Source of the DNA: Actinomycetota bacterium
Lineage (GTDB): Bacteria; Actinomycetota; Thermoleophilia; Gaiellales; F1-60-MAGs149
NCBI GenBank assembly: GCA_947478745.1
Contig: CANJXE010000003.1
Coordinates: 1 to 44,320, forward strand
Length of the DNA stretch: 44,320 nt
Direction: 5' to 3'
This document shows, one piece after another, positions 37,675-44,320 of the stretch (position 1 is the stretch's first letter; every line of letters starts with the position of its first letter). A program made the position numbers and the translations under genes. The notes below the pieces were generated by a model that worked only from the letters and a program-made list of their open reading frames with translations, made no database searches and was not told where the DNA came from.

Positions 37675-38760
37675 TCAGAAGACGCGCTTGCCGAAGGCGA
37701 GACGATCCTTGTAGTAGCCCTTGTCCCAACGGGCGAGCGCGATGCCCTGCCCGGAGGACTGGATGAAGAGCTGGCTGGAGATCGCCATGCCGGTGTGGCC
37801 GATGCTGCCGGAGGCGGCCGTGACGCCACCGCTGCCGAACAGGAGCACGTCGGCGGGGGCGATCTTGTCGGCCGTCAGGCGCTGCTCGGCCGGGGTCTTG
37901 CCAGCCATCTCGTAGGTGGTGCGGCCACCCAGCGCCTTGGCCACCGTGACGGGCGAGGTCGGGTCGAGCGCCGTGACGCGCCACACGAACCCGGAGCAGT
38001 CGAACCCGCCGGCCGTGTTGTAGCCGAACAGGATCTGCGGCTTCTCGGAGGTCCCGCCCCAGATGTAGGGCATGCCGATGAAGTCGAAGCCACGCTGGAT
38101 GGCATCGTGCTGCGGGCCGGTCGTGGCCGGCAGGAGCGCCAGCAACTCGACGGTATCGATCGCGTCCTGCTTCTCCCAGCCACCCCACTGCAGAACCTGC
38201 GAGGCGCTCCAGATGGCATCGCCGCGGGCGGCCTGCTCGTACCAGGCGTGCTCCTTGGCGTCATCGACCTGATCCAGGTTGGTGCGGAGGCGCAGGAGGC
38301 GCGCAACGATCTCGTAGCCGACGCCCGGACGTGCGACGTACCCGGTCTGGGTGATCAGCTGCTCAGCGCGGACGGCGGTGGCGTCCAGCCCCGCCGCGCT
38401 GACGAAGGCCCGATCCACGTCGCCCAGCGTCACCGGCTGACCGGCGGCGATCTGCCGCGCACGCTTCGCCGACTTCGGGAAGGCCGCGGTGACGAACGCC
38501 GACAGCGACGGCCCGTCGAGCACGCCGTCCGGATCGATCGCGTCTGCCGTGACACCCGGGAACGCTCCCGTATTGAGCACCGTGACGATCGCGCTGCTCA
38601 CCCAGGAACGCGTCGTGGGGGGCTGCGTGGAGATCGCAGCCGCGACCGGGCGCTTCTTCACCGGCTTGCGCTTCTTGCGCTTCGCGTCTGCGATGCCGCT
38701 GAAGGCGACGAGCGCGATCAGGACGAGGGCCGTGGTCTTGGTGAGGCGGGAGATAGTCAT
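37675..38760 (-). CDS. Secreted NlpC/P60 peptidoglycan endopeptidase
   Basis: Signal peptide followed by a Lys/Arg-rich stretch; GMPYIWGG, FDCSGFV and GHTG catalytic motifs. Confidence 0.92.
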   Translation of the reverse strand: MTISRLTKTTALVLIALVAFSGIADAKRKKRKPVKKRPVAAAISTQPPTTRSWVSSAIVTVLNTGAFPGVTADAIDPDGVLDGPSLSAFVTAAFPKSAKRARQIAAGQPVTLGDVDRAFVSAAGLDATAVRAEQLITQTGYVARPGVGYEIVARLLRLRTNLDQVDDAKEHAWYEQAARGDAIWSASQVLQWGGWEKQDAIDTVELLALLPATTGPQHDAIQRGFDFIGMPYIWGGTSEKPQILFGYNTAGGFDCSGFVWRVTALDPTSPVTVAKALGGRTTYEMAGKTPAEQRLTADKIAPADVLLFGSGGVTAASGSIGHTGMAISSQLFIQSSGQGIALARWDKGYYKDRLAFGKRVF

Positions 38761-38789
38761 CGTTGTGATAGACGCTTAAGGGTCTCTCT

Positions 38790-38905
38790 GTCACCCTGAG
38801 GCTGGGTTCCTCAGGTGGGGATCGAGACTCTAGGTGCCCCCCACTCTACAGCGCAAGCTCCAGGCCGTTGCGCTTTCGTAACTGTCTCGACCAAACCCTG
38901 AGGGT
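38790..38905 (-). ncRNA. Candidate structured 5' leader RNA of the NlpC/P60 gene (family not recognised)
   Basis: Three nested helices (CCUCAGG/CCUGAGG, GGUCGAGAC/GUCUCGAUC, AGCGCAA/UUGCGCU) plus a competing downstream CCUCAGG. Confidence 0.45.
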
Positions 38906-39014
38906 GGGCCAAATAATTGGCATGGATACAGGTAAAACGACGTGATTCGACAACGTAACGAGAAGATCACGATGGCACCAAAAGTCTCAACCATTACCTG
39001 AGTAATGTGCGATT

Positions 39015-39035
39015 GAGGGTGAGACTGGCACCCTC
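39015..39035 (-). terminator. Hairpin 15 nt downstream of the hisA stop (possible terminator)
   Basis: GAGGGTG-N7-CACCCTC; no strong U-tract. Confidence 0.45.
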
Positions 39036-39050
39036 TGCAAAGGTCGAGGG

Positions 39051-39803
39051 TTACGCTTGAGCCTGCAGCAATGCGGCCATGCGCGACGGGTCGTCGAGCA
39101 GCGCGCGACCGACGACCGCGCCGGCGCATCCGAGCGCGCGAGCATCCCGGACATCGGCGGGCGTGGTCACCCCACCCGCGGCGATCACGGCCACCCCGGG
39201 CACCGCCGCGAGCACGCGCTCGAGCAGCTGGAGGTCCGGACCGCCGAGCGTGCCGTCGCGATCGATGCCGGTGATCAGCAGCGTCTCGACGCCGAGCTCG
39301 ACGACGGCGCTTGCCGCGATCTCGACGGCGACCCCGGCGTCCTCGACCCAACCGTCGACGCGCACGGTCCCGTCGCGGCTATCGAGGGCCACCGCGATGG
39401 CGCGACCGTGACGGGTCACGAGACGCTCGAGCTCGTCCGGCGAGCGCAGGGCCATCGTGCCGATCAGCACGCGGTCGACGCCCAGGTCGAGCAGCGCATC
39501 CACCGCTGCCGCAGAACGGAGCCCGCCGCCGACCTGGAGCACGGCGCCCGCCGGCTTGCCCGCAGCGAGGGCGGCGATGACGGAGCGATTCGGCTCAGCG
39601 GGCAGTCCCGTGCGTGCGGCATCGAGGTCGATCACGTGCAGCGCGGTGGCGCCGGCCTCCCACCCCATGCTCGCCCGCACGCAGGCGTCGTCCAGCTCGT
39701 TGGTGAGGAGCTGATCGAACTGCCCGTGCAGGAGGCGCACCGCTCGGCCGTCGATCAGATCGATGGCGGGATAGAGGCGGAAGGGATCGGCGCTGGTAGT
39801 CAT
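39051..39803 (-). CDS. hisA: ProFAR isomerase HisA
   Basis: YPAIDLIDGRAVRL, LHVIDLD.A, QVGGGLR, GW, TGIDRDGTL.GP, AGGV. Confidence 0.94.
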   Translation of the reverse strand: MTTSADPFRLYPAIDLIDGRAVRLLHGQFDQLLTNELDDACVRASMGWEAGATALHVIDLDAARTGLPAEPNRSVIAALAAGKPAGAVLQVGGGLRSAAAVDALLDLGVDRVLIGTMALRSPDELERLVTRHGRAIAVALDSRDGTVRVDGWVEDAGVAVEIAASAVVELGVETLLITGIDRDGTLGGPDLQLLERVLAAVPGVAVIAAGGVTTPADVRDARALGCAGAVVGRALLDDPSRMAALLQAQA

Positions 39804-39804
39804 T

Positions 39805-39822
39805 GTGTTAGCATGCTAACAC
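39805..39822. promoter_or_regulatory. 18-bp perfect palindrome: putative YerC/HisR operator and bidirectional promoter
   Basis: GTGTTAGCATGCTAACAC occupies 18 of the 20 bp between the divergent hisA and yerC start codons. Confidence 0.75.
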
Positions 39823-39823
39823 G

Positions 39824-40138
39824 ATGACCAAGACACCTGACACGAACGACTGGCGCACACCGTCGGTCGAGCAGCTCGCCGACACGCTCGTGTCGATCCA
39901 GGATCGCGAGTCGATGCTGGCCTTCCTGCGCGACGTCTGCTCGCACAACGAGCTGTCGACGCTGGCGCAGCGCCTCGACGTGGCGCGTCTCGTCGATGCC
40001 GGCATCCCCTACGCCGAGATCGCCCGTCGCCTCGGTGCGTCCACCGCCACCGTCACCCGCGTGGCGCAGTGGGTCCGGCACGGCGAGGGCGGCTACCGCT
40101 CGGTGCTGGACGCCGAGGCGGAGGTCCCCGGCGCATGA
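39824..40138 (+). CDS. YerC/YecD TrpR-related repressor (putative HisR)
   Basis: FLRDVCSHNEL..LAQRLDVA.L, HTH YAEIARRLGASTATVTRV, GEGGY; first gene of the his operon. Confidence 0.9.
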   Translation: MTKTPDTNDWRTPSVEQLADTLVSIQDRESMLAFLRDVCSHNELSTLAQRLDVARLVDAGIPYAEIARRLGASTATVTRVAQWVRHGEGGYRSVLDAEAEVPGA

Positions 40139-40995
40139 TCAACGGCATCCTGCGCATCGCCGTCCCCTCCAAGGGGCGCTTGGCCGAGCCGACGCTGACG
40201 CTGCTCCGTGCAGCCGGCCTTCCGATTCCGTCCGATGATCGGCGCCTGCTGGTGCCGATCCCCGACCAGAACGCCGAGATCCTCTTCGCCCGCACCGATG
40301 ACATCCCCACGCTGATCCGCGACGACGCCGCCGACGTCGGCGTCGCCGGCTCCAATCAGCTGCTCGAGCACGGCAGCGATGGCGTGGAGGAGCTGACCCG
40401 GCTCGGCTTCGGCGCCTGCAGCCTCGTGCTGGCCGTCCCCGGCGACTCGCCGATCGTCGGCGTTCACGAGCTCGCCGGGCGCCGCATCGCCACCTCCCAC
40501 CCGGTCGTCCTCCGGTCCTATCTGGCCGAGCAGGGCATCGCCGCCGAGGTGGTCACGCTGACTGGCTCGATCGAGCTCGCCCCGATGATCGGCGCCGCCG
40601 AGGCCGTCTGCGACCTCGTCTCGACCGGCGAGACACTGCGGCAGAACGGATTGCGGCCGATCGAGACGATCCTGCGCTCCGAGGCGGTGCTGCTGACGGC
40701 CGCCAAGCGCCGCGATGCCGCCGGGGTTGACGTGCTCCGCACTGCGGTCGAGTCCGTGCTCGCAGCGCGTCCCAAGCGCTACCTCATGCTCAACGCCCCC
40801 GACGGCGCCCTCGACGCGATCATCGCGCTGCTGCCCGGCATCGACGCGCCCACGGTCCTGCCGCTGGCGCGCTCCGACATGCACGCCGTGCACGCCGTCG
40901 TCGATGCAGCAGATCTGCCGCGACTGCTTCATCCTCTCAAGGAGGCCGGAGCCTCCGGTCTCCTCGTCCTGCCGATCGAGCACCTGATTCCATGA
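40135..40995 (+). CDS. hisG: ATP phosphoribosyltransferase (long form)
   Basis: LRIAVPSKGRL, RTDDIP, GFGAC.L, GSIELAP, DLVSTGETL, plus the C-terminal regulatory domain (PGIDAPT, GASGLL). Confidence 0.96.
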   Translation: MINGILRIAVPSKGRLAEPTLTLLRAAGLPIPSDDRRLLVPIPDQNAEILFARTDDIPTLIRDDAADVGVAGSNQLLEHGSDGVEELTRLGFGACSLVLAVPGDSPIVGVHELAGRRIATSHPVVLRSYLAEQGIAAEVVTLTGSIELAPMIGAAEAVCDLVSTGETLRQNGLRPIETILRSEAVLLTAAKRRDAAGVDVLRTAVESVLAARPKRYLMLNAPDGALDAIIALLPGIDAPTVLPLARSDMHAVHAVVDAADLPRLLHPLKEAGASGLLVLPIEHLIP

Positions 40996-42695
40996 CCGAA
41001 CTCGACATCCCCTGGATCCGCCCCGAGCTGGCCCAGCCCTCTCCGTACCGCTGGCAGGAGGGGATCCCGGCCGGCGACGTCGCACGCTTCGACCTCAATA
41101 CGCTGCCGCTCAACCCCTCGTGGTGGCCCGGCATCGCCCGCACCATTGCCGCCCAGTCCGTCAGCTCGTATCCCGAGGCCGACTACGCGCCGCTCAAGCG
41201 GGCGATCGCCGGCTACCTCGGCATCGATCCCACCTGCGTCGTCCCGACCGCCGGCGGCGACGAGGCGATCCTCCTGACCGCCTGGCTGGCGCTGGGTCGT
41301 GGCGACCGCGCCGTCGTGGGACGTCCGACCTATCAGCTGCACGCCAACAGCGTGCGCATGACCGGCGCCGAGCTCGATCTCGTCGATCCGCTGCCGGGCC
41401 CGACGCTCCGCCTCGATCTGGCGACGATCGCGGAGAAGGCCAAGGGCGCCCGCCTCGTCTGGCTCTGCTCGCCCAACAACCCGACCGGCGAGGACATTCC
41501 CGCTGACGTGATCCGCGAGATCAGCGCCAACTGCTCCGGCCTCGTCTGCGTCGATCAGGCCTACCTCGAGTTCGGCGGCGCGACGGACCATCTCCCCCTG
41601 CTGGCGGAGCTGCCGAACCTCGTCTTCATCCGCACGTTCTCCAAGGGCTGGGGCATGGGCGCGCTGCGGGCGGGCTACGCGATCGCCAATCCGCTCGTGG
41701 CCGGCGCCATGGATGCCCTGCGTCCGCCCGGCTCGCTGTCCACCGGTTCGGCGCTCGGCGCCGAGCTGGCATGCGCGCACGCCGACACGATGCGGAGCGA
41801 CGCGGCCAACTACCGTGCCGAGCGCGAGCGGTTCAGCGCCGGCCTGCGCGAGCTCGGTCTCGACCTGATCGGCGAGGCGGGCAACTTCGCCTGCGCGCGC
41901 ATTCCCTGGTCGGGCGACGAGCTCTTCGCGAAGCTCGCGCCTCAGGGGCTGATCGTCCGCACCTTCGGCCACGAGCCGCTGCTCGCCAATGCCTTCCGCG
42001 CGTGCGTCTCGCTGCCCGCCGACAACGATCGCCTGCTCGCCGCCCTCGCCGACCTGCTGGCCAAGCCCGCGCCGGCACCCGCCGACCCGCTGGTCGGCAC
42101 CAGCACCTTCGGCCGCGGTGCGCTGATCGAGCGCCGGACCAAGGAGACCGACATCCGCCTGCGCACCACGCTCGACGGCAGCGGCAGCGTCTCCGTCGCC
42201 ACCGGCGTCGGCTTCCTCGACCACATGCTGACCGCGCTCGGGCACCACGCCCTGCTGGACTTGGACCTGACCTGCACGGGCGACACCGACATCGATCCGC
42301 ACCACACCGTCGAGGACTGCGGCATCGTCCTCGGCCAGGCGATCGACGCCGCCCTCGGCAACCGCGCCGGCATCCAGCGCTTCGGCGATGCCTCCGCCCC
42401 GCTCGACGAGGCGCTGGGCCGCGCCGTCGTCGACTTCTCCGGGCGCGGCTCGAGCACGGTGCGCATCGCCTTCAGCGGCACGACCATCGGCGAGCTGCCC
42501 ACCACGCTGATTCCCCACCTGATCGACTGCATCGCCGTCAACGCCCGAGCCACGATCCACGTCGAGGCCAGCGGCGAGGACGACCACCACGTGGCCGAGG
42601 CGGCCTTCAAGGCCCTCGCCCGAGCGCTGCGTCAGGCGTGGGCGATCGACCCGCGCCGTGGCGCCCAGATCGCCTCGACCAAGGGCTCGCTCTGA
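40992..42695 (+). CDS. hisC-hisB: Fused histidinol-phosphate aminotransferase / imidazoleglycerol-phosphate dehydratase
   Basis: N-terminal part: YP, CSPNNPTG, DQAY.EF, RTFSK..G...LRAGY. C-terminal part from about nt 42111: RRTKETDI, GFLDHML, HHTVED, DEAL, HHVAEAAFK, STKGSL. No intervening stop. Confidence 0.93.
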   Translation: MTELDIPWIRPELAQPSPYRWQEGIPAGDVARFDLNTLPLNPSWWPGIARTIAAQSVSSYPEADYAPLKRAIAGYLGIDPTCVVPTAGGDEAILLTAWLALGRGDRAVVGRPTYQLHANSVRMTGAELDLVDPLPGPTLRLDLATIAEKAKGARLVWLCSPNNPTGEDIPADVIREISANCSGLVCVDQAYLEFGGATDHLPLLAELPNLVFIRTFSKGWGMGALRAGYAIANPLVAGAMDALRPPGSLSTGSALGAELACAHADTMRSDAANYRAERERFSAGLRELGLDLIGEAGNFACARIPWSGDELFAKLAPQGLIVRTFGHEPLLANAFRACVSLPADNDRLLAALADLLAKPAPAPADPLVGTSTFGRGALIERRTKETDIRLRTTLDGSGSVSVATGVGFLDHMLTALGHHALLDLDLTCTGDTDIDPHHTVEDCGIVLGQAIDAALGNRAGIQRFGDASAPLDEALGRAVVDFSGRGSSTVRIAFSGTTIGELPTTLIPHLIDCIAVNARATIHVEASGEDDHHVAEAAFKALARALRQAWAIDPRRGAQIASTKGSL

Positions 42696-42696
42696 C

Positions 42697-43302
42697 GTGA
42701 CCCCTGTCACGGTCGTCGATTACGGGGGCGGCAACGTCCGCTCGCTGTGCGCCGCGCTCGAGCGCTCCGGCGCCGTGGTGCAGGTCAGCGCCGACCCTGA
42801 GGTGGTCGCCGCATCCGAGCGGCTGATGCTGGCCGGGCAGGGTGCCGCCGGAGCCGCCATGCGGGCGCTCACGGAGACCGGCCTCGACGAGGCGCTGCGC
42901 GACGCCGCCGCGCGCAACGTGCCGCTGCTCGGCGTGTGCGTCGGGCTGCAGGTGCTCTACGAGTACTCCGAGGAGGACGACTGCGCGGGCCTCGGGCTGT
43001 TGCACGGCTTCGTGCACCGGATTCGCGGCGCCGAGCGGCTGCCCCACCTCGGCTGGAACGACGTCGAGCCGGTGCAGCAGCACCCGCTGACCGCCGACCT
43101 GCCCGCCGTCGCCTACTTCGCACACTCCTACGCGGTGACCGCGGACATCCCGTCTGCGCTTGCGATCACCCGCATCGACGAGGCCTCGATCGCCTCCGTG
43201 GTGGCTCGCGGCTCGGTGGCCGGTGCGCAGTTCCATCCCGAGCGCTCGGCCGAGGCCGGCCGCCAGATGCTCCGTCGCTTCCTCGCCTGGGATGGCCGCT
43301 GA
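42697..43302 (+). CDS. hisH: IGP synthase glutaminase subunit
   Basis: [36 protein letters not shown]. Confidence 0.95.
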
Positions 43303-44051
43303 TGCTGCGCCGTCGCATCATCCCGTGCCTCGACGTCTCCGGCGGGCGCGTGGTCAAGGGCGTCGAGTTCGTCAACCTGCGCGATTGCGGCGAGCCGATC
43401 GAGGCCGCCCTGCGCTACGCCGAGCAGGGCGCCGACGAGCTCTGCTGGCTCAACATCACCGCCGGCGACGAGGCCTGGCACGAGCTGCTCGAACAGGTGG
43501 CCGGCGCCGGCACCCGCATCGACGTGCCGCTGACCGTCGGCGGCGGCATCTCCGACGAGCTGCACGTGCGCGACCTGCTCAGCGCCGGCGCCGACAAGGT
43601 CTCGATCAACAGCGCGGCCCTCGACCGTCCCGATCTGATCACCGAGTGCGCCGAGCGCCACGGCTCGCAATGCATCGTCGTGGCGATCGATGCCCGGCGC
43701 ACCGGCGACACCTGGGAGGCCGTGGCCTCGGGCGGCCGTCGCTCCACCGGGCGCGATGCGGTCGAGTGGGCCGCCGAAGCCGTCGCCCGTGGGGCCGGCG
43801 AGCTGCTCGTCACGAGCATGGACTCGGACGGCACGCAGCAGGGCTACGCCCTCGAGCTCTACGAGCAACTGCTCGACGAGGTGTCGGTGCCGATCATCGC
43901 CTCGGGCGGCGCCAGCTGTCCGGCGGACATCGCCGACGTCCTGCAGCTCGGAGTCTCTGCCGCGTTGGCCGCCAGCATCTTCCACGATGGCCTACACACG
44001 GTCGAGGAGGTGAAGCGCGCATGTCGGGAACGGAAGCTGCCGATCCGCTGA
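43302..44051 (+). CDS. hisF: IGP synthase cyclase subunit
   Basis: [53 protein letters not shown]. Confidence 0.96.
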
Positions 44052-44320
44052 GCCTCGACGGCGAGCCCCGCTTCGACGGGGACGGCCTGATCCCCGCGAT
44101 CTGCCAGGACGCCGTCGACGGTTCGGTGCTGATGCTGGCGTGGATGAACGCCGCTGCGCTGGAGCGCACGCGCACCACGCGCCATGCCTGGTTCTGGTCG
44201 CGCTCGCGGCAGGAGCTGTGGGAGAAGGGCGCCACGAGCGGCAACGTGCTGACCGTCCAGGAGCTCCACCTCGACTGCGATCAGGATGCCCTGCTGCTGC
44301 TGGTCTCCCCCGCCGGACCC
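44021..44320 (+). CDS. hisI: Phosphoribosyl-AMP cyclohydrolase HisI (possibly HisIE), runs off the window end
   Basis: Manual translation from ATG 44021 after GAGGAGG: GLIPAICQD...VLMLAWMN...[18 protein letters not shown]...DCDQDALL. Confidence 0.93.

Follow-up and report, generated by a model that had tools for sequence, protein, structure and literature searches.

We examined a 44,320-nucleotide stretch of DNA (hereafter the window; contig CANJXE010000003.1, assembly GCA_947478745.1) from a freshwater Gaiellales bacterium, in which hisA (minus strand, start codon ATG at 39803) diverges from a gene for a YerC/HisR-type repressor (plus strand, ATG at 39824; hereafter hisR) across 20 bp, 18 of which form a perfect palindrome. 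This palindrome is probably the operator of the adjacent HisR, and it probably also carries both back-to-back core promoters, one reading into hisA and the other into the hisR-hisG-hisCB-hisH-hisF-hisI operon. Both the mechanism and the regulator family have been in the literature since 2022; the novelty lies in the lineage, the variant of the motif, and a putative operator that coincides with a probable bidirectional, essentially leaderless promoter in a 20-bp gap. The locus reveals no new mechanism and no new kind of switch.

An initial annotation, made from the window alone, had placed the gap, the palindrome and both gene starts correctly to the base. Its description of each strand, with TAGCAT 9 nt and CATGCT 6 nt before the ATG and no Shine–Dalgarno (SD) sequence, was likewise borne out, and Pfam and NCBIfam profiles confirmed its gene identities (hisA, YerC, hisG, hisCB, hisH, hisF and hisI). 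No GGAGG-like (SD) stretch occurs in the 20-bp gap. The gap, its elements and the two flanking genes are listed here with the basis of each assignment.

39051–39803, minus strand: hisA (ProFAR isomerase), 250 amino acids, a single-gene divergent unit (PF00977 3e-54, TIGR00007 2.2e-58)
39801–39803, minus strand: hisA start codon, present as its reverse complement (sequence)
39804–39823, no strand: the entire hisA–hisR intergenic gap, 20 bp (sequence)
39805–39822, no strand: putative HisR operator, the perfect 18-bp palindrome GTGTTAGCATGCTAACAC, within a 20-bp site at 39804–39823 (sequence and conservation)
39809–39814, plus strand: TAGCAT, candidate −10 element for hisR, preceded by TGT (extended −10-like), 9 nt before the ATG (predicted from sequence)
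39812–39817, plus strand: CATGCT, alternative −10 element for hisR, at −12 to −7 of the ATG and 6 nt before it (sequence)
39813–39818, minus strand: TAGCAT, candidate −10 element for hisA, overlapping the plus-strand hexamer by 2 bp (predicted from symmetry)
39810–39815, minus strand: mirror copy of CATGCT, alternative −10 element for hisA (symmetry)
39824–40138, plus strand: hisR (yerC-type TrpR-family repressor), 104 amino acids, first gene of the operon, ATG at 39824–39826 (PF01371 9.7e-21, TIGR02531 7.8e-21)

Within the palindrome, an in-frame TAG lies 12 nt upstream of the hisR ATG and another 15 nt upstream of the hisA ATG, with no alternative start codon between TAG and ATG in either gene. 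Because an in-frame stop inside the palindrome precedes each of them, both start codons are unambiguous.

Conservation of the palindrome

With up to 3 mismatches allowed, the window contains a single occurrence of the 18-mer (0.01 expected from 100 shuffles), as does the complete 1,649,678-base assembly. Searches of the host genome for second sites with GTTAGCATGCTAAC (≤2 mismatches), TTAG-N4-CTAA, GTTA-N6-TAAC and TTTA-N6-TAAA returned the known site or nothing. Among 20 loci from the same genus, the gap measured 20 bp in every case, with five variants of the 20-mer, and the string CATGCTAACACGATG was present in all 20; 16 of the 18 palindrome columns were invariant, and the two variable ones (T4→C and G7→A) both fell in the hisA-proximal half. 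Mean column identity was 0.98 across the palindrome and 0.63–0.65 at flanking third codon positions, the latter measured ungapped over the first ~21 codons on each side, which somewhat understates flank identity. The HisR and HisA proteins of the same loci are only 75–86% and 62–79% identical, and the nearest loci (84–86% protein identity) come from metagenome-assembled genomes labelled Gaiellales, Thermoleophilia or Actinomycetota. As this pattern of conservation indicates, the palindrome is under selection.

We then widened the comparison by profile search with one genome per species, which gave at least 567 relatives, and examined the best 80 loci (labelled Gaiellales, Gaiellaceae, Acidimicrobiales, Limnocylindrales, Chloroflexota and similar). 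By tblastn, hisA was present in 74 of these 80 loci, divergent from hisR in all 74, and hisG lay downstream of hisR in 76; the rule used to call gene starts broke down at a few loci. With an iterated site model, 78/80 loci reached at least 12 bits no more than 220 nt before the hisR match, and one exception, L130, has an N at the site position. Conservation at orthologous loci, on which the initial annotation had staked its reading, was thus found in all 20 genus loci and in 78 of 80 further ones. The dyad between hisA and hisR spans 20 bp and has the consensus CRTGTTAGCATGCTAACAYG across Thermoleophilia, Acidimicrobiia and Chloroflexota.

Pooling 110 loci, of which 109 had at least 8/12 core matches, yielded 67 unique 22-mers with the consensus nCRTGTTAGCATGCTAACAYGn. 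The 12-bp core columns of this pool are biased by the way sites were picked; the flanking columns are unbiased, and they too are symmetric (C at −9 in 55/67, T at −7 in 61/67, A at +8 in 62/67 and G at +10 in 58/67). In two Chloroflexota loci (L128 and L116), the dyad is kept though hisR starts 31–55 nt away behind GGAGG.

Two observations stand apart. In four Acidimicrobiales loci (L090, L104, L108 and L134) and one from Limnocylindrales (L092), the hisA–hisR gap is filled with tandem or overlapping copies of the half-site, such as TTGCATAGTAGCGAAGTAGCATAGTAGCATGCTGATATG, which suggests multiple HisR dimers or shifted operators. Separately, a contig labelled 'Bifidobacterium breve' (CAMDVX010000050.1) carries a Gaiellales-type hisA/hisR locus with the same palindrome and 76% HisR identity; the label looks like a probable error.

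The regulator belongs to the HisR family

The hisR product scored 74.1 bits against PF01371 (cut-off 27) and 74.3 bits against the YerC/YecD model TIGR02531 (cut-off 42.2), and it failed the TrpR equivalog model TIGR01321 (26.6 bits, cut-off 67.25). With phmmer, its residues 8–96 aligned with residues 3–91 of the E. eligens structure 3G1C (E 5e-16), a protein treated as HisR in PMC9413887; further matches among solved structures were 3KOR (5.6e-16) and 3FRW (5.8e-15). Identity between HisR of this clade and the solved Firmicutes proteins is ~40% of aligned residues.

The helix-turn-helix (HTH) of the window protein, PYAEIARRLGASTATVTRV, aligns with TYLDIAEKTGASTATISRV of 3G1C, and the string aligned with the recognition helix reads GASTAT-V-T-RV. 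HisR proteins are reported to differ from TrpR in having Tyr for Arg69 and Thr for Ile79, with Ala80, Thr81 and Arg84 kept (PMC9413887). All of these HisR-type residues are present in the window HTH, with residues numbered by analogy; a position that is mostly Ser among HisR proteins is Thr in the window protein. A comparison of 14 proteins of the order showed no variation in the recognition helix, with S73, T74, T76–A81 and W83 all invariant. Profile scores and HTH residues together identify the window regulator as a member of the HisR family and not as TrpR proper.

Probable leaderless promoters within the palindrome

We surveyed the host genome for leaderless starts, using 9,231 candidate start codons (ATG/GTG within the first 40% of open frames of ≥450 nt, with GC3, the G+C content of third codon positions, of at least 0.85). 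The hexamer TANNNT had its first base at −12 for 156 of these candidates and at −13 for 81, versus 3–11 at most other offsets. Around the 156 hexamers at −12 the flanks are G+C-rich, with C at −1 in 111/156, and the most frequent leaderless hexamers in the genome are TAGGCT, TACCCT and TACGCT. By this signal, leaderless transcription is a major mode in the host genome, and so sharp a signal gives this uncultivated genus of Gaiellales a promoter grammar of practical use. Because the genome is so strongly leaderless, both promoters very probably lie inside the putative operator.

Two registers can be read from the palindrome. In the first, TAGCAT and the 6 nt after it would place the beginning of the hisR transcript at A39821, with ACG as a 3-nt leader. 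TANNNT at −15 occurs in 25 cases in the genome, including hisA, and at least 4 of these belong to an ATG one codon earlier, for which they stand at −12; parallels to this register include TAAAAT-N6-ACGATG in family g5 and TAGACT-N6-ACGATG at two other host genes. In the second register, CATGCT at −12 to −7 predicts a truly leaderless start at A39824. CANNNT at −12 was found in 46 cases, compared with 13–22 at in-phase neighbouring offsets, and in relatives whose site ends in CTAAC-ATG or GATAAT-ATG, TAGCAT, TAACAT or TATCAT stands exactly at −12 to −7 of both start codons. The predicted divergent starts are spaced ~15 bp apart in the TAGCAT register and 21 bp apart in the CATGCT register. For both genes, transcription is predicted to begin at the A of the ATG or 3 nt upstream of it.

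A consensus scan of 38600–40300 returned 0 promoters and 0 terminators; being tuned to TTGACA/TATAAT, it says little for this organism. The initial annotation had called the gap minimal, which holds in a relative sense only, as the gap seems to be no more than 14 bp in some relatives: at L099 and L127 the first ATGs are 14 bp apart, with later in-frame starts also present there.

Comparison with known HisR, TrpR and bidirectional promoter systems

The closest published systems are the HisR regulators, orthologs of B. subtilis YerC, described by Ashniev et al. 2022 (PMC9413887). Shared with them are a ~100-amino-acid PF01371 protein, a 20-bp palindromic site before his genes that has TTA-N6-TAA as its core, and (predicted here) autoregulation. 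The initial annotation had presented such proteins as predicted repressors found mainly in Firmicutes, an account that needs updating: HisR is reported in 492 genomes, among them Proteobacteria in which hisR heads the his operon, and for one protein, that of Ruminococcus gnavus, binding to a HisR site was observed in vitro only with 0.75 mM histidine (PMC9413887). The same source describes HisR operators as 20-bp palindromes, with the consensus cacTTTAnnnnnnTAAAgtg in Firmicutes, Coriobacteriia and Synergistetes and TGTAnTArnnnnyTnTTACA in Proteobacteria, whose his operon has a HisR site immediately upstream of the leading hisR. The window 20-mer, tGTGTTAGCATGCTAACACg, carries the TTA-N6-TAA core of the published motif, and family g5 of the same order shows the full TTTA-N6-TAAA in its sites TTTTAGCATGCTAAAA and GTTTTAGCATGCTAAAAT. 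Because a conserved, family-type dyad stands beside the regulator gene and before his genes, the site would count as a HisR operator by the comparative criteria of PMC9413887.

The window system also departs from its published relatives. The outer motif positions read tGTG...CACg in the window and cac...gtg in published HisR sites. Unlike published HisR sites, the window site takes up the entire space between two divergent genes that lack an SD, and it is predicted to control a divergent hisA as well, and its regulon includes neither a histidine transporter nor a second site (PMC9413887). The Actinobacteria of that paper's main text, as distinct from its supplementary genome lists, are Coriobacteriales and Eggerthellales only, in which hisR is never clustered with his genes. 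A full-text search turned up no paper in which HisR or TrpR is connected to Thermoleophilia, Acidimicrobiia or Gaiella; PMC9413887 alone uses 'HisR' as the name of a regulator, with 0 mentions of those taxa.

E. coli TrpR offers a more distant parallel (via PMC9413887). It belongs to the same fold family and acts as a dimer on a dyad of ~20 bp overlapping the −10 element, with an amino-acid corepressor and autoregulation; it differs in its operator consensus, TGTAcTnGTnnACnAgTACA, in its pathway (histidine here) and in its Trp-contacting residues, which are not kept in HisR.

On the promoter side, bidirectional promoters arising from −10 symmetry are reported to be common in bacteria, with divergent starts commonly 18, 10 or 23 bp apart, and AcrR is described as an auto-repressor of both RNAs at the bidirectional PacrA/acrR (PMC12825309). 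The window element resembles these promoters (Warman, Grainger; PMC12825309) in that a short pseudo-symmetric sequence would drive both directions, with polymerase bound in one orientation at a time. It differs in that its transcripts are predicted to be leaderless, with start codons 20 bp apart and the start spacing given above.

Distribution and size of the regulon

Of 41 related genomes, 32 encode a hisR homolog. At ≤1 mismatch, the 12-mer core has exactly one match in 28 of the 41, always beside hisR, and none in the 9 that lack hisR; four hisR-positive genomes have more degenerate sites. A class-wide sample of 201 genomes, 192 with a completeness of 90% or more, contained 33 with hisR, most of which were Gaiellales (29/37 in families f1, f2 and f5). 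A single site no more than ~100 nt from hisR was present in 20 of the 29 hisR-positive Gaiellales, another 8 had no match at that stringency, and 1 had an unlinked match only. None of 8 hisR-negative f2 genomes contained a 12-mer match.

The predicted regulon is local, comprising hisA and the hisR operon. The initial annotation had spoken of a switch for both halves of the his pathway, which overstates the arrangement: one gene (hisA) stands against six, and hisD lacks both linkage to the locus and a site. It had also proposed scanning for extra sites upstream of hisD, and none was found in the three same-genus loci read, while the host genome holds only the known site. The host genome, 87.65% complete, yielded no hisD, and in 3/3 same-genus genomes hisD lies unlinked on another contig. 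In two genomes (G022 and G008), hisD has a predicted leaderless promoter of its own, TAGGCT-N6-ATG, and the best match to the 18-mer has 8–9 mismatches. In a single same-genus genome (G004, locus L152), the inverted repeat GTTAG-GGCAGT-CTAAC occurs ~75 nt upstream of hisD and abuts a divergent gene start; it consists of his half-sites with a 6-nt and not a 4-nt spacer.

Proposed mechanism and alternative explanations

HisR is predicted to bind 39804–39823, with histidine as the presumed corepressor by analogy with R. gnavus HisR. On each strand, a −10-like hexamer within the dyad (TAGCAT, CATGCT or both), lacking an SD and followed 6–9 nt downstream by the start codon, would produce an mRNA that is leaderless or has a leader of at most 3 nt. 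With histidine plentiful, a histidine-loaded HisR dimer would occupy the dyad, masking the two −10 hexamers as well as the start points and keeping polymerase out in both orientations, and so turn off hisA, the six enzyme genes of the operon and, through negative autoregulation, hisR itself. In either register the −10 elements and start points of both genes fall within the putative operator, so that one dimer should suffice to exclude polymerase both ways, in keeping with the action of AcrR on both RNAs at PacrA/acrR (PMC12825309). With histidine low, HisR would leave the site and polymerase could bind in either orientation. The initial annotation had likewise proposed an autoregulatory operator with overlapping divergent −10 boxes, and comparative evidence now supports that proposal: the regulator is of the HisR family, the dyad is conserved over two phyla and is the only such site per genome, always beside hisR, and the genome makes wide use of leaderless promoters.

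More tentatively, the 26-bp symmetric module formed by the dyad and its flanking start codons (CAT-n-18-bp dyad-n-ATG) could be a complete control region, holding both core promoters, the transcription and translation starts, the frame-fixing stops and a single operator. If so, the choice of polymerase orientation and one histidine-loaded HisR dimer would set the output of the whole locus, and the module would be among the most compact natural regulated bidirectional promoters, kept in versions of 14 to 40 bp across Thermoleophilia, Acidimicrobiia and Chloroflexota, possibly through transfer of the cassette between phyla.

Two opposed leaderless −10 elements set 20 bp apart are necessarily pseudo-symmetric, so the palindrome might be promoter alone, with HisR acting elsewhere or not on this locus. 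TAGCAT and CATGCT are indeed identical on both strands, the central TAGCATGCTA consists of opposed TANNNT hexamers, the host genome makes heavy leaderless use of TANNNT, the TGT before TAGCAT in the window resembles an extended −10, and −10-symmetry bidirectional promoters are common (PMC12825309). We nevertheless regard this explanation as unlikely. Symmetric conservation extends to −9..−5 and +6..+10, outside both hexamers; T stands 3 bases before the hexamer in just 17/156 generic promoters, versus T/A in 61–62/67 his sites at the equivalent dyad position; and two phyla share the bases at the hexamers' N positions (G/A, C ... G, C). The dyad also persists in the Chloroflexota loci L128 and L116, at the distance from hisR noted above. 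Taken together, the extended symmetric conservation, the kept N positions and the Chloroflexota dyads lead one to expect a dimeric DNA-binding protein and not promoters alone. The layout, moreover, fits the published HisR motif (PMC9413887), and no other conserved non-coding element adjoins hisR. An RNA hairpin is more improbable still: were transcription to begin inside the opposite gene, a 13-bp mRNA hairpin would bury the AUG and could serve translational control or processing. The predicted fold is stable (−17.8 kcal/mol, z = −3.65, 0/200 shuffles as good), with UCAUUGUGUUAGC pairing with GCUAACACGAUGA, start codon included; but any perfect DNA palindrome folds in this way, and there is no SD to mask. 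The scan of 38600–40300, with its tuning to TTGACA/TATAAT, gave 0 promoter-like sites, the leaderless signal and the exact −12..−7 register of TAACAT/TATCAT in relatives with 14-bp gaps point to starts within the dyad, and the natural variants are non-compensatory, T4→C or G7→A changing the left half in 5/20 loci with the right half unchanged.

A third possibility accepts a HisR operator and gives it another effector or sign, with a non-histidine ligand such as a pathway intermediate, or with HisR setting promoter orientation or noise. The R. gnavus protein is the sole HisR assayed with histidine, and HisR2 paralogs with non-histidine regulons are reported (PMC9413887); the clade shares with the solved Firmicutes proteins the ~40% of aligned residues given above, and one acidic position in a conserved helix differs (FFED in 3G1C, FLRD in the window). 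Against this stand the strict physical and phyletic linkage to his genes and the centring of the site over both −10 elements, from which activation is hardly to be expected. We consider this version improbable, and favour HisR as a histidine-responsive repressor of both promoters.

Several points weigh against that favoured interpretation. The central 10 bp, TAGCATGCTA, can be explained by two overlapping −10 boxes alone, and tGTGTTAGCATGCTAACACg fits only 7/14 specified positions of the Firmicutes-type consensus. Both hexamers are non-ideal, TAGCAT lying 3 nt beyond the dominant register and CATGCT lacking the first T. The phyletic pattern is less telling than it appears: HisG is absent from the hisR-less Gaiellales of g4 (4/4, 78–88% complete) and f2 (5/5, 92–98%), and because these genomes lack hisG as well, they provide no his-positive, hisR-negative control, and the co-occurrence of regulator and site is partly trivial. 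At ≤1 mismatch the 12-mer is non-specific class-wide, with hisR-less families close to the rate of a reversed control pattern, and one such match, in family f7 (locus L155), precedes a MarR-family gene (PF01047 3.6e-13) by ~50 nt, with a long open reading frame resembling a membrane transporter after that gene. Finally, all 13 sequencing runs listed as containing 39300–40400 are DNA, and none is RNA.

The g4 genomes G027, G031, G035 and G039 and the f2 genomes G075, G099, G134, G194 and G204 are probably histidine auxotrophs in which regulator and pathway were lost together; matches to PF00977 in the g4 genomes reach no more than 43 bits, far under those of real hisA or hisF. The f7 element is a look-alike of the form TTTGC-N3-CTAAC-GGTTAGCRTGCTAAC-nTTT, with the core at ≤1 mismatch, found at L155 (1490–1520, genome G052), L156, L157 and L159–L161. 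Comparison of the window his proteins and HisR with the f7 loci by tblastn gave no match, and the element is probably a MarR operator or a promoter that merely resembles a HisR site.

Significance

The locus would carry the HisR regulon, so far described from Firmicutes, Coriobacteriia, Synergistetes and some Proteobacteria, into Thermoleophilia, Acidimicrobiia and Chloroflexota that are uncultivated and live in fresh water and soil; transcription factor–operator pairs are all but unknown in these lineages. A site that is unique per genome, together with a regulator of ~100 residues, makes an easy and well-defined test case, and potentially the first experimentally anchored promoter and operator of Gaiellales. 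It would also be a clean natural case in which two leaderless promoters, overlapping and opposed, are under one repressor, and as such relevant to work on bidirectional promoters and to compact synthetic control elements in high-G+C hosts.

Gene content and source of the locus

The host assembly comprises 1,649,678 bases in 129 contigs at 70% G+C. Downstream of hisR, the genes of the operon (hisG, hisC-hisB, hisH, hisF and hisI) have overlapping stop and start codons and run to the end of the window.

40135–40995, plus strand: hisG, long form, its ATG overlapping the hisR stop (ATGA) (PF01634 3.9e-46 and PF08029 3e-22)
40992–42695, plus strand: fused hisC-hisB (aminotransferase and IGP dehydratase), 567 amino acids (PF00155 6.4e-38 at residues 42–351, PF00475 3.4e-54 at residues 404–546)
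42697–43302, plus strand: hisH, start GTG at 42697, alternative start at 42658 (PF00117 2.6e-16)
43299–44051, plus strand: hisF (PF00977 8e-71)
44021–44320, plus strand: hisI (PRA-CH), truncated by the end of the window and contig (PF01502 4.1e-26)

We considered whether hisA might be a bifunctional PriA (HisA/TrpF), which would explain its separate unit, and rejected this: it scored 112 bits against TIGR01919 (cut-off 306), and trpF (PF00697) was found in 3/3 near-complete same-genus genomes. The DNA runs that contain the stretch are lake and freshwater metagenomes, plus a sludge metagenome that contributes little; the run with the most of it may come from the source sample and so gives no independent support. 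The 1,955-bp contig C123 of the host genome has a PRA-PH (hisE) domain close to its start (204–455), which is probably the continuation of the hisI truncated at the window end, which would make that gene a hisIE fusion.

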